From assembly GCF_053078305.1 (NCBI RefSeq), contig NZ_CP166879.1: a stretch of DNA of 64,000 nucleotides; one strand, written 5' to 3'. The stretch's first letter is position 1; every line of letters begins with the position of its first letter. Shown here one piece after another: positions 3,273 to 30,783 of this stretch. The position numbers and the translations under genes are program-made. Below the pieces are notes generated by a model. The model was not told the DNA's origin. It ran no database searches and was given only the letters and a program-made list of their open reading frames with translations.

Positions 3273-5735
3273 TCAGACTCCTAACTTCCATGAGAGGGTA
3301 CGCAGCAGATCGGCAAAGACACCGGCAGCTGTAACGTCATTGCCCGCACCATATCCGCGCAGCACCAACGGCAGCGGCTGATAATAGTGGCTATAAAAGG
3401 CCAGGGCGTTTTCGCCATTTTTCACTTTGAACAGCGGATCATTACCATCCACTTCGGCAATCTTCACGCGGCAGACACCATCTTCATCAATATTGCCAAC
3501 ATAGCGCAAAACTTTTCCTTCATCACGGGCCTTCGCCACGCGCGCGGCAAAGAGATCGTCGAGCTGTGACAGATTCGCCATAAAAGCGGCAACATCACCC
3601 TCGGCGTTAAACTCTGCGGGCAGCACAGGTTCAATTTCAATATCCGCCAGCTCCAGTTCACGTCCCGTTTCACGAGCGAGGATCAATAGTTTACGCGCCA
3701 CATCCATACCAGAAAGATCATCTCGCGGGTCCGGTTCGGTATAACCCATTTCCCGCGCCAGCGTAGTCGCCTCGGAGAAACTCATGCCTTCGTCTAACTT
3801 GCCGAAGATATAAGAAAGCGAACCTGAAAGAATGCCGGAGAACTTCATCAATTCATCACCTGCATTGAGCAGATTTTGCAGGTTCTCAATAACCGGTAAT
3901 CCAGCCCCAACGTTGGTGTCATAGAGGAATTTACGTCGCGATTTTTCCGCCGCATAACGCAACTGATGGTAGTAATCCATCGACGAGGTGTTGGCCTTTT
4001 TATTCGGCGTGACAACGTGGAAACCTTCGCGCAGGAAGTCGGCATATTGATCCGCCACTGCCTGGCTGGAGGTGCAGTCAACAATGACCGGGTTCAGCAG
4101 ATGATATTCTTTCACGAGGCGAATTAAGCGCCCGAGATTAAACGGCTCTTTGGCTTGTGCAAGTTCTTCCTGCCAGTTTTCCAGGTTTAGGCCATGCACA
4201 TTGGTGAGCAGAGCCTTCGAGTTGGCAACGCCGCAGACACGTAAGTCGATATGTTTATTCTTCAACCAGCTTTGCTGACGCTTCAGTTGCTCCAGCAGCG
4301 CACCGCCAACGCCACCGACGCCAATCACAAACACTTCGATAACCTGATCGGTATTGAACAGCATCTGATGAGTAACGCGCACGCCAGTGGTCGCATCATC
4401 GTTATTTACCACGACAGAGATTGAGCGTTCAGAAGATCCCTGAGCAATGGCGACAATGTTGATATTGGCGCGGGCCAGCGCGGCAAAGAATTTCGCCGAG
4501 ATCCCACGCAAGGTGCGCATACCATCACCTACCACCGAGATAATGGCCAGCCGTTCCGTCACCGCCAGCGGCTCCAGTAAGCCTTCTTTCAGTTCCAGGT
4601 AGAACTCTTCCTGCATTGCCCGTTCAGCTCGCACACAGTCGCTTTGCGGAACGCAGAAACTGATACTGTATTCGGAAGATGATTGCGTAATCAGCACCAC
4701 GGAAATACGGGCGCGTGACATTGCAGCAAAGACGCGCGCCGCCATGCCGACCATTCCTTTCATCCCCGGGCCGGAAACGCTGAACATTGCCATGTTATTC
4801 AGATTGGAAATGCCCTTGACCGGTAATTCGTCTTCATCACGGCTGGCACCAATGAGCGTACCTGGAGCTTGAGGATTTCCGGTATTTTTAATCAGGCAAG
4901 GGATCTGGAACTGGGCGATGGGGGTAATGGTGCGGGGGTGAAGAACTTTAGCGCCGAAGTAGGAAAGCTCCATCGCTTCCTGGTAGGACATCGACTTCAA
5001 CAACCTCGCATCGGGCACCTGACGCGGGTCGCAGGTATAAACCCCGTCAACGTCCGTCCAAATCTCGCAACAATCGGCGCGTAAACAGGCAGCCAGAACC
5101 GCCGCGGAGTAGTCGGAACCGTTGCGTCCAAGCACCACCAGTTCGCCTTTTTCATTACCGGCGGTGAAACCTGCCATCAGCACCATGTGATCAGCCGGAA
5201 TACGACTTGCCGCAATACGGCGGGTGGACTCAGCAATATCGACGGTAGATTCGAGGTAATGCCCCACTGCCAGTAGTTTTTCGACCGGATCGATAACGGT
5301 AACGTTGTGACCACGCGCTTCTAACACGCCGGCCATAATGGCGATCGACATTTTCTCGCCACGGCAAATCAGCGCAGCGTTAATGCTATCCGGGCACTGC
5401 CCTAACAAACTAATGCCATGCAGGACATGTTTTATTTGGGCAAATTCCTGGTCGACGAAAGTTTTCAATTGCGCCAGCGGGAATCCCGGCTGGGCGGCGG
5501 CGAGTCCCGTCAGAAGTTCGGCAAAAATACGTTCGGCATCGCTGATATTGGGTAAAGCATCCTGGCCGCTAATGGTTTTTTCAATCATCGCCACCAGGTG
5601 GTTGGTTATTTTGGCGGGGGCAGAGAGGACGGTGGCCACCTGCCCCTGCCTGGCATTGCTTTCCAGAATATCGGCAACCCGCAGAAAACGTTCTGCATTT
5701 GCCACTGATGTACCGCCGAACTTCAACACTCGCAT
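3273..5735 (-). CDS. thrA: Bifunctional aspartokinase I / homoserine dehydrogenase I
   Basis: ORF 3273..5777; start placed at the internal Met giving [17 protein letters not shown] (820 aa). Confidence 0.96.
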
Positions 5736-28591: not shown

Positions 28592-29608
28592 ATGTCCACA
28601 TTACGCCTGCTCATCTCTGACTCTTACGACCCGTGGTTTAACCTGGCGGTGGAAGAGTGTATTTTTCGCCAAATGCCCGCCACGCAGCGCGTTCTGTTTC
28701 TCTGGCGCAATGCCGACACGGTAGTAATTGGTCGCGCGCAGAACCCGTGGAAAGAGTGTAATACCCGGCGGATGGAAGAAGATAACGTCCGCCTGGCGCG
28801 GCGCAGTAGCGGTGGCGGCGCGGTGTTCCACGATCTCGGCAATACCTGCTTTACCTTTATGGCTGGCAAGCCGGAGTACGATAAAACCATCTCCACGTCG
28901 ATTGTGCTCAATGCGCTGAACGCGCTTGGCGTCAGCGCCGAAGCGTCTGGACGTAACGATCTGGTGGTGAAAACCGCCGAAGGCGACCGCAAAGTCTCAG
29001 GCTCAGCCTATCGCGAAACCAAAGATCGCGGCTTCCACCACGGCACCTTGCTGCTCAATGCCGACCTCAGCCGCCTGGCAAACTATCTCAATCCGGATAA
29101 AAAGAAACTGGCGGCGAAAGGCATTACGTCGGTACGTTCCCGCGTGACCAACCTCACCGAGCTGTTGCCGGGGATCACCCATGAGCAGGTTTGCGAGGCC
29201 ATAACCGAGGCCTTTTTCGCCCATTATGGCGAGCGCGTGGAAGCGGAAATCATCTCCCCGGACAAAACGCCAGACTTGCCAAACTTCGCCGAAACCTTTG
29301 CCCGCCAGAGTAGCTGGGAGTGGAACTTCGGTCAGGCTCCGGCATTCTCGCATCTGCTGGATGAACGCTTTAGCTGGGGCGGCGTGGAACTGCATTTCGA
29401 CGTTGAAAAAGGCCATATCACCCGCGCCCAGGTGTTTACCGACAGCCTCAACCCCGCGCCGCTGGAAGCCCTCGCCGGGCGACTGCAAGGCTGCCTGTAC
29501 CGCGCGGATATGCTGCAACAAGAGTGCGAAGCGCTGTTGGTTGACTTCCCGGACCAGGAAAAAGAGCTACGGGAGTTGTCGGCATGGATGGCAGGGGCGG
29601 TACGGTAA
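28592..29608 (+). CDS. lplA: Lipoate-protein ligase A
   Basis: 338-aa ORF recognised as LplA ([57 protein letters not shown]...). Confidence 0.97.
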
Positions 29609-29639
29609 CTCGCTGATTAAAATATCCAGGGAAGGAAAT

Positions 29640-29903
29640 ATGATCGATCTGGAAAACCAGGAACGGGAGATTATCAATTTAATGTTCAGCCAGCGTATTT
29701 CCTGGCTAGCCGCCGTGCGTATCAGGCATAAATTATCGCTTGCTGAAGTAAGTAAAATGTTAGGTATCTCCATTAATTCTCTAAAACAGATCGAAAAGAC
29801 GGAACGGCTTAGCTCAAACATCAAAAGCAAAATGGCAGAAATTTATGGTTGTCCACCAGAGTTGCTGATATGCCCTTCCTGGATGACGGCTGAACATAAA
29901 TGA
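29640..29903 (+). CDS. Small XRE-family helix-turn-helix protein (87 aa), low GC
   Basis: ATG at 29640 with RBS GGAAGGA 5-11 nt upstream; HTH-like segment LSLAEVSKMLGISINSLKQIEKTER; occupies the lplA-deoD gap. Confidence 0.6.
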   Translation: MIDLENQEREIINLMFSQRISWLAAVRIRHKLSLAEVSKMLGISINSLKQIEKTERLSSNIKSKMAEIYGCPPELLICPSWMTAEHK

Positions 29904-29998
29904 ATAGATTCGTGAATAGATACTTGAATGGATTTTATTATCTATCCATATGAAAAATAATAGTAAATCTATAAATCAGTTGCTATTGATGAATAGAT
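29901..29998. repeat. Iterated 9-mer TGAATAGAT (three exact direct copies, one variant TGAATGGAT, one inverted ATCTATCCA) in an AT-rich spacer
   Basis: Copies read directly at 29901-29909, 29913-29921, 29926-29934 (variant), 29940-29948 (inverted) and 29990-29998. Confidence 0.7.
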
Positions 29999-30000
29999 AC

Positions 30001-30030
30001 TAAAAAGCCGGAGCAGTCTCCCGCTCCGGC
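30001..30030 (-). terminator. Rho-independent terminator downstream of deoD
   Basis: Hairpin GCCGGAGC-N8-GCTCCGGC followed on the minus strand by TTTTTA. Confidence 0.8.
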
Positions 30031-30063
30031 TTAACACAACAATCGCCTTTCAGCGAAACGCAA

Positions 30064-30783
30064 TTACTCTTTATCGCCCAGCAGAACGGATTCCAGTGCG
30101 ATTTTAATCATGTCGTTGAAGGTGGTCTGACGTTCAGCGGCAGTGGTCTGCTCGTGAGTGCGGATGTGGTCAGACACGGTGCAGATGGTCAGGGCTTTCG
30201 CGCCAAATTCTGCAGCGACGCCGTAGATACCAGCCGCTTCCATTTCCACGCCGAGGATGCCGTATTTTTCCATCACGTCGAACATTTCGCCGTCTGGAGA
30301 GTAGAACAGGTCAGCGGAGAACAGGTTACCCACGCGAGCATCAACGCCCAGTGCTTTAGCTGCATCTACTGCGTTACGCACCATGTCAAAGTCAGCGATA
30401 GCGGCAAAGTCATGGTCTTTAAAACGGATGCGGTTAACTTTGGAATCGGTGCAGGCACCCATACCGATAACGACGTCGCGCAGTTTTACGTGCGGCAGAA
30501 CTGCGCCACAGGAACCCACGCGGATAATTTTCTTCACGCCGAAATCGGTGATCAGTTCTTTGGTGTAGATGGAGCAGGACGGGATACCCATACCGTGACC
30601 CATTACGGAAATTTTGCGGCCTTTGTAAGTACCGGTGAAGCCCAGCATACCGCGAACGTTGTTCACTTCACGGGCATCTTCAAGGAAAGTTTCAGCAATA
30701 TACTTCGCACGCAGCGGGTCGCCTGGCATCAAAACTACGTCAGCGAAATCGCCCATTTCTGCATTAATGTGTGGGGTAGCCAT
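30064..30783 (-). CDS. deoD: Purine nucleoside phosphorylase DeoD
   Basis: ORF 30064..30840; start placed at [33 protein letters not shown] (239 aa). Confidence 0.97.

Follow-up and report, generated by a model that had tools for sequence, protein, structure and literature searches.

What occupies the interval between lplA and deoD on an Escherichia coli chromosome that lacks yjjJ (hipH) at this site, and is the occupant a working gene? HipH (YjjJ) has been studied as a toxin of E. coli K-12 linked to persistence, cyclic di-GMP (c-di-GMP) and cell division. The question is raised by a 64,000-nucleotide stretch of contig NZ_CP166879.1 (assembly GCF_053078305.1), referred to here as the window, in which the gene order is serB, ytjB, lplA (plus strand), a gap, deoD (minus strand), deoB and deoA. 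The window is DNA of E. coli/Shigella type, and a 24-kb query from it showed 99.0% identity to the best-matching E. coli chromosomes. The gap is 455 bp long (29609-30063; lplA ends at 29608 and deoD, on the minus strand, at 30064), and carries an 87-codon open reading frame (ORF) with a predicted XRE-family helix-turn-helix (HTH). In a sequence-only reading of the window this arrangement had been taken for a replacement or deletion scar at a toxin-like locus, and the ORF product for an orphan regulator or an antitoxin-like survivor; the gap length, the ORF at 29640-29903, its low G+C content and its GGAAGGA ribosome-binding site were all found as described there. We favour, with a probability of about 0.6, the interpretation that the window carries the HTH form of a long-standing locus with two alleles, in which hipH was cleanly exchanged in ancient times for a solo XRE domain, and that the product is probably a small repressor, dimeric and translated from the lplA transcript, which lacks a toxin partner, is not tied to HipH and is dispensable.

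The nature of the exchange was determined by alignment with a K-12-type chromosome (L001), in which lplA is followed by yjjJ (443 amino acids, on the deoD strand), 166 bp and deoD, with the yjjJ stop codon adjoining that of lplA. The position of a 443-residue yjjJ between deoD and lplA, on which the sequence-only reading was based, was therefore accurate. Two collinear blastn blocks were obtained, one joining the window up to 29607 with L001 up to 1670 and the other joining the window from 29895 onward with L001 from 3001 onward. The 287 bp in between (29608-29894) stand in place of 1330 bp in K-12, which correspond exactly to yjjJ from codon 2 to the stop codon, while the yjjJ start codon, its promoter region and the deoD terminator are kept. 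No similarity of this segment to the yjjJ loci of six genera was detected at the level of either DNA or six-frame translation; blastn at word size 7 aligned nothing between the breakpoints with yjjJ, and tblastn of the HTH ORF against the six yjjJ loci gave no match better than E=0.24. An inverted or scrambled piece of yjjJ is thus ruled out, as is the identity of the 87-codon ORF as a yjjJ/hipH remnant, and the HTH protein is unrelated to YjjJ. Since the 287 bp have no counterpart in yjjJ, the event was a replacement and not a deletion, and the segment is a clean replacement of the yjjJ coding sequence. The G+C content is 41.8% for the segment and 41.7% for the ORF, as compared with 58.3% for lplA and 52.5% for deoD, and this low value fits a foreign origin; the AT-rich stretch of the gap is at 22.7%. 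The coding features of the locus are as follows.

28592 to 29608, plus strand: lplA, lipoate-protein ligase A (ORF list, RefSeq annotation of matching loci, blastn); the left flank, homologous in both alleles up to 29607.
29608 to 29894, plus strand: allele-specific low-G+C segment of 287 bp, standing for yjjJ codon 2 to stop (blastn breakpoints).
29630 to 29636, plus strand: Shine-Dalgarno-like GGAAGGA, 3 nucleotides before the ATG, kept in other HTH alleles.
29640 to 29903, plus strand: 87-codon XRE-family HTH ORF, ATG at 29640 and TGA at 29901-29903, intact and identical to RefSeq WP_000566150.1.
29706 to 29867, plus strand: predicted XRE/Cro DNA-binding domain of five helices, codons 23-76 (Pfam HTH_3, phrog_7241, AlphaFold2 with Foldseek), preceded in the AlphaFold2 model by an extra N-terminal helix at residues 4-18.
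29895 to 29897, minus strand: retained yjjJ/hipH start codon (CAT on the plus strand, also His86 of the HTH ORF), where right-flank homology begins.
30064 to 30783, minus strand: deoD, purine nucleoside phosphorylase, the right flank (ORF list, RefSeq annotation).

That the junction might hold alternative occupants in different E. coli strains was borne out by a survey of 5426 complete E. coli genomes. Both flanks are present in 5424 of these; the HTH segment was found in 4073, making it the majority allele, and yjjJ in 1348, so that the two add up to 5421. The HTH segment and yjjJ are alternative occupants of one slot, a complementarity that is read from the totals and not from genome-by-genome co-occurrence. 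Carriers of the HTH allele include O157:H7, O104:H4, O111, O103, a B-strain derivative, Nissle 1917 and ATCC 25922, and those of yjjJ include K-12 derivatives, JJ1887 and NRG857c. Differential loss from an ancestor with both genes was considered and rejected, as neither a genome nor a species carrying the two together was seen and the totals are complementary, co-occurrence not having been checked genome by genome. Three matches of the HTH segment were located on plasmid-labelled records, all with the word of the nonsense allele Q50* described below; these may be misassigned chromosomal contigs or fragments of the chromosome captured on plasmids. The presence of yjjJ "only in K-12" relative to B had already been noted (PMC5379014), and RefSeq already labels the ORF "helix-turn-helix domain-containing protein". 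It was thus known already that K-12 and B differ in having yjjJ and that the HTH ORF exists; the exact breakpoints, the 75/25 split of alleles, the ancestral state, the antitoxin-domain origin, the frequency of Q50* and the conserved ATCTATTCA array upstream of hipH, given below, are new here.

The order of events can be judged from related genera. The yjjJ gene lies directly downstream of deoD and is followed by lplA in Citrobacter freundii, Salmonella enterica, Kosakonia cowanii, Cedecea davisae and the enterobacterial lineage of L012; in Erwinia it also lies downstream of deoD, and lplA is absent from that position. This location beside deoD from Erwinia to Salmonella indicates that yjjJ is the ancestral occupant. 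The HTH gene was found in E. coli/Shigella, E. marmotae and Escherichia spp. E1130 and E1V33, and a scan of GTDB species representatives gave only two Escherichia loci with it. In addition, a single Logan contig (L003, DRR526040_81833, 1371 bp) carries between lplA and deoD a gene for an 87-residue protein of 44% identity. Its lplA is only about 79.5% identical in DNA to that of Escherichia, Citrobacter or Kosakonia, which points to a separate genus and hence to a replacement allele that is old or has moved between genera.

The AT-rich repeat block noted in the sequence-only reading lies to the right of the segment, together with the deoD terminator, which is present as had been stated. What that reading had overlooked is that the block is the promoter/operator region of hipH. 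On the plus strand the repeat is read as TGAATAGAT at 29901, 29913 and 29990 and as TGAATGGAT at 29925; of the 13 matches to the motif in the window with at most one mismatch, 5 lie within 98 bp, and an isolated copy of ATCTATTCA at 1042 is what chance predicts. The elements of this region are given below.

29814 to 29897, minus strand: 27-codon antisense ORF from the retained hipH ATG, MFSRHPGRAYQQLWWTTINFCHFAFDV, crossing the 3' end of the HTH gene.
29901 to 29933, minus strand: three ATCTATTCA boxes in tandem, repeating every 12 bp, at -12, -24 and -36 relative to the hipH ATG; the one at -36 reads ATCCATTCA, and box 1 holds the stop codon of the HTH gene.
29934 to 29989, minus strand: AT-rich spacer, hipH promoter region, about 50% diverged from the K-12 spacer.
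29990 to 29998, minus strand: distal ATCTATTCA box, near -100 relative to the hipH ATG and directly next to the deoD terminator (alignment).
30005 to 30032, minus strand: intrinsic terminator hairpin of deoD (deo operon), followed by a T-run (terminator scan).

Alignment of the two alleles showed that the three tandem boxes near the yjjJ ATG are nearly identical, the third copy in the window differing at one base, and that the fourth box, beside the deoD terminator, is identical in both, whereas the 53-bp spacer between them is only about 50% identical. In seven loci with yjjJ (L001, L009, L011, L012, L022, L023 and L024), ATCTATTCA occurs as an exact 9-mer at about -100 and again as two or three tandem copies, 12 bp apart, at -36/-24/-12; the array at 3007-3104 of L001 corresponds to 29901-29998 (minus strand) of the window. 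This layout is conserved in Escherichia, Citrobacter, Salmonella, Kosakonia, Cedecea, Erwinia and the L012 lineage, and the rest of the spacer is not. Region 29895-30004 is thus best read as an orphaned hipH promoter/operator. The published RpoD promoter of yjjJ, TTTTCA-18-TCTATT, is bound by H-NS (PMC3946193), and its -10 element TCTATT falls inside the -36 box; Reg-Seq found MarA and an unidentified repressor at the yjjJ promoter, and the regulation of hipH by c-di-GMP acts via the promoter region (PMC11452175). No description of the array was found in the papers retrieved, and it is a candidate for the site of the Reg-Seq repressor and for autoregulation of HipH. The HTH residues near the N terminus of YjjJ (L22-L32 and G43-L52) are near-invariant over ten genera in a protein that is 49-69% identical as a whole; together with the invariant boxes, this fits recognition of the motif by HipH itself, and we infer that its own N-terminal HTH is the natural binder. 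The boxes may also resemble the "tor box" of TorR (CTGTTCATAT), from which no claim is drawn.

In the HTH alleles the array shows signs of erosion. Most have a mutated -36 box, four loci (L004, L005, L018 and L050) have lost one 12-bp unit, and the boxes are essentially gone in L003. Strain EC28 (L017, about 2005-2100) carries the HTH gene with a spacer of K-12/yjjJ type, a recombinant which indicates that crossover inside the tandem boxes can uncouple the type of spacer from gene content. If the orphan promoter is still active, its transcription would run antisense to the HTH gene and to the 3' end of lplA; the 27-codon antisense ORF is probably incidental. A small RNA in the AT-rich block was considered and set aside, as Rfam gave only a chance-level match (E=0.79). 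The junction is a target of IS (insertion sequence) elements, of which one case within the HTH ORF is given further on. On the yjjJ side, two further observations concern this spacer: in strain XJ5.2 (L015, 1069-2357) IS1 and IS200C are inserted between deoD and yjjJ, and in L012 an ORF of 163 codons (3332-3823) lies between deoD and the yjjJ control region, with the boxes intact downstream of it. By its sequence the 163-codon ORF looks like a REP-associated tyrosine transposase.

The XRE-like HTH claimed for the 87-residue protein was confirmed. The motif LSLAEVSKMLGISINSLKQIEKTER is present, and Pfam HTH_3 (PF01381) matched residues 23-76 over its full model (1-55) at E=1.2e-6; HTH_19, HTH_31 and HTH_25 also matched, as did HTH_VI of PADLOC at 3.2e-6. 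The AlphaFold2 model (predicted local distance difference test score, pLDDT, 87.7) consists of an N-terminal helix followed by a Cro/C1-type fold of five helices (22-29, 34-41, 45-54, 59-69 and 73-76), and all top matches in the PDB by Foldseek were of XRE type, namely CylR2, SinR-N, C.BclI/C.AhdI, P22 c2, 434 Cro, DdrO-N and CapH-N. Identity as region 4 of a sigma-70 factor was rejected: Pfam Sigma70_r4 matched at E=1.8e-5, more weakly than HTH_3, TIGR02937 scored 18 bits against a cut-off of 42.9, and the structural neighbours are all XRE type.

A family search that scored each of 1.84 billion representative proteins returned the Escherichia cluster and one full-length relative outside Escherichia, the singleton P0079. 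The other relatives (95-133 amino acids; P0081, P0093, P0097 and P0102 are among the phmmer matches) align through their C-terminal part with the whole window protein. Against phrog_7241 (E=3.4e-10) the window protein covers only positions 54-121 of 122, whereas P0081 and P0102 match end to end, and by alignment with the full-length relatives about 55 N-terminal residues are missing. These full-length relatives (121-133 amino acids, from prophages or viruses and one metagenome contig) are each preceded by a gene for a RelE/ParE-type toxin of about 86-88 residues; homologues were found at 14 viral loci, and the one toxin gene checked in precomputed Pfam matches carries ParE_toxin. No toxin gene lies beside the window ORF, as lplA is located 31 bp upstream, and the hipH control region and deoD downstream. 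The protein is therefore, by its alignments, the DNA-binding half of the antitoxin of a toxin-first type II module, without the presumed toxin-binding N-terminal half and without the toxin. "Orphan regulator" was a fair description, and "antitoxin-like survivor" was right only in so far as an antitoxin's HTH half is the homologue of this protein, the related systems being RelE/ParE and not HipA/HipH, and the gene not being a survivor of the hipH locus.

Comparison with known systems is in line with this assignment. With the HTH antitoxins of toxin-first RelE/ParE modules (HigA-like arrangement, phrog_7241) the window protein shares a homologous HTH domain and the helix preceding it at 32-43% identity, the motifs V/ISxLxAxR and AE-I/V-Y-G/N-C, and a low-G+C, mobile-element-like origin, but the TATAAG/CTTATA repeats of their promoters are absent from the window locus. 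The small XRE/Cro repressors (CylR2, C-proteins of restriction-modification systems, 434 Cro, and the N-domains of P22 c2 and SinR) are of similar size and have the same five-helix fold, with Foldseek template modelling (TM) scores to target of 0.62-0.78 and root-mean-square deviations of 1.5-2 Å over 53-60 residues; identity is only 16-30%, and the window protein has an additional N-terminal helix and a Cys/Pro-rich tail, CPPELLICPSW. By analogy with these repressors, it would most likely act as a dimer on a repeated operator, although it differs from them in that neither an operator nor a partner gene clearly controlled by it was found. The yjjJ/hipH gene of K-12, which encodes a Ser/Thr kinase of the HipA family that carries an HTH at its N terminus (Gerdes et al. 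2021, PMC8262856), shares with the window gene the slot, the start codon, the box array, the spacer and the deoD terminator, but is on the opposite strand and is of 443 and not 87 codons; the window protein has no kinase domain and no sequence relationship to YjjJ, whose N-terminus reads from the alignment as winged-helix-like and not XRE. HipB, the XRE antitoxin of HipA (88 amino acids), is similar in size, belongs to the same broad superfamily and is linked to HipH by theme, but the window gene is never adjacent to a Hip kinase and the gap contains none. HipB-like identity was rejected, as no BLASTP similarity was detected to a HipB sequence entered by hand, and NCBIfam PRK09726 and TIGR03070 gave no match at E<=0.01.

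In the interpretation that we favour, the ancestral state is a monocistronic toxin-kinase gene, hipH, downstream of deoD, with one distal and three tandem ATCTATTCA boxes. One ancient event would have replaced hipH from codon 2 to its stop by a 287-bp fragment of foreign, low-G+C DNA, coding on the opposite strand for only the XRE HTH half of a RelE/ParE-type antitoxin, and would have left in place the hipH start codon, the promoter/operator and the deoD terminator that together make up the "AT-rich repeat block". The terminator scan detected no plus-strand terminator between lplA and the HTH ORF, and co-transcription, for which the lack of a terminator and of a convincing promoter makes the simplest case, is likely. 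The 87-residue product would then most likely be a small dimeric XRE DNA-binding protein translated from the lplA transcript, a solo repressor without toxin partner. The gene is dispensable: the window copy is intact, and nearly half of the carriers of the allele have a nonsense or frameshift version. The data show directly the layout of the locus, its breakpoints, the frequencies of the alleles, the fold and homology of the protein, the signal of selection and the conservation of the boxes; expression together with lplA, binding to DNA and dimerisation are inferred.

Several points weigh against this interpretation. At least 1831 of the 4073 carrier genomes (at least 45%) have a broken copy, a fact not noticed in the sequence-only reading, and any function must therefore be weak or conditional. 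By exact-word searches, the Q50* allele (CAG to TAG in the recognition helix; codon 50 is at 29787-29789) is present in 1690 of the 5426 genomes, and a separate allele with a deletion of 1 nucleotide in 141; the Q50* haplotype is linked to F16L and L57F and was seen in L044-L047, L049 and L020. Among 12 systematically sampled carriers, 6 are annotated as pseudogenes. Neither an operator-like repeat nor a convincing promoter was predicted upstream of the ORF, and searching the literature for it, with guessed locus tags and with the RefSeq accession, returned no paper; its transcription, translation and DNA binding are deduced from sequence. The link between the L003 and Escherichia alleles depends on one contig of 1371 bp. 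Synonymous divergence (dS) between the window and L005 or L004 is 0.04-0.08 for the ORF and 0.17-0.28 for lplA and deoD; with L005 alone, the value for the ORF is 0.078 against 0.26-0.28 in the flanks. This low ORF value suggests later horizontal spread rather than simple vertical descent, or constraint at the nucleotide level, and complicates the view of a single ancient event. As to HipH as the binder of the boxes, chromatin immunoprecipitation with exonuclease treatment (ChIP-exo) of tagged YjjJ detected no DNA binding (PMC8464067).

The strongest competitor, which we hold to be rather unlikely, is that the ORF has no function and is the relic of a foreign antitoxin gene, a piece of which stays open by chance in some lineages and is decaying, so that the locus would be an insertion scar without a regulator. 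The nonsense and frameshift alleles just described suit this possibility, as do insertions of IS elements within the gene (in strain MB22, L016, 2804-3784, an IS5-family element, ISKpn26, lies inside the ORF). The family is very small and hardly extends beyond Escherichia, the protein has neither the N-terminal half nor the toxin partner that its relatives possess, and no publication or experiment attesting to its expression was found. The ratio of non-synonymous to synonymous rates (omega) is about 0.37, far above that of lplA (0.09) and deoD (0.04). However, seven intact Escherichia alleles differ by 12 synonymous and 17 non-synonymous segregating changes, and the deficit of the latter is significant against neutrality (P=0.009). 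The L003 counterpart keeps exactly 87 codons, the start context and the core residues of the HTH in spite of 44% identity, the chance of an open frame of 87 codons at this base composition being 0.003, and the GGAAGGA site is conserved in other HTH alleles. The broken copies, moreover, are mostly of one nonsense haplotype, which may go back to a single event in one large clade. Taken together, these signals argue that the HTH ORF codes, or once coded, for a real protein under weak constraint, and that E. coli can do without it.

We regard as improbable a functional tie to hipH, in which the HTH protein would bind the retained ATCTATTCA boxes and control the orphan hipH promoter, now directed antisense into the HTH gene itself, or would neutralise HipH in trans in the manner of HipB, both alleles being kept by balancing selection. 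In its favour, Escherichia lineages with the HTH gene keep the boxes beside it in spite of a diverging spacer, and in E. coli both alleles are deeply diverse and present in strains from several lineages. Moreover, the toxicity of YjjJ is rescued by HipB, an XRE antitoxin (PMC9948734), Reg-Seq reports an unidentified repressor at the yjjJ promoter, and YjjJ itself gave no signal in ChIP-exo. Its extended form, in which hipH and the HTH gene are alternative cassettes sharing one control region, with the 87-residue protein recognising ATCTATTCA or countering HipH kinases and balancing selection acting in Escherichia and at least one other genus, is a shade less probable still; if true, the locus would be a chromosomal dimorphism of toxin against anti-toxin and not a neutral replacement of one gene by another. 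As the counts are complementary, however, the two genes are never needed together, and conservation of the boxes extends to genera with yjjJ and without the HTH gene, where this protein cannot be their binder. The boxes are eroded in the HTH alleles and essentially gone in L003, as noted above, and they are kept where the HTH copy is dead, as in half of the carriers. The related antitoxin promoters carry TATAAG/CTTATA and not ATCTATTCA, and the comparisons with HipB, by the hand-entered sequence and by the NCBIfam models, were negative. A simple deletion of yjjJ, with the ORF arisen by chance from leftover sequence, can be dismissed in spite of the short gap and the surviving yjjJ start codon and upstream region, because the 287 bp have no counterpart in yjjJ loci, the ORF has genuine homologues elsewhere, the HTH form is shared by most E. 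coli genomes, other Escherichia and another genus, and a true deletion scar, a rare third state found in strain WB61 (L014, 2449-2640), looks different, with 64 N-terminal codons of yjjJ abutting or overlapping the 3' end of lplA.

The preferred interpretation, a clean exchange of hipH for a solo XRE domain, bears mainly on the work on HipH. Since hipH is missing from about three-quarters of the complete E. coli genomes, including those of O157:H7, B strains, Nissle and ATCC 25922, findings made with K-12 cannot be generalised to the species. The HTH gene itself exemplifies a solo, truncated DNA-binding domain of antitoxin type that has long resided on the chromosome and is now disappearing from a large part of the species. 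As a gene-replacement polymorphism the locus is fairly ordinary, and no general principle is altered by it.

A separate observation concerns the surroundings of the locus. The 24-kb query (window 18000-42000) matched E. coli genomes at a median of 25 places each, and even in the best of them only 96% of it is covered. No element is repeated inside the window itself; this number of places and this coverage together indicate that at least one multicopy (IS-like) element is present within 18000-42000.

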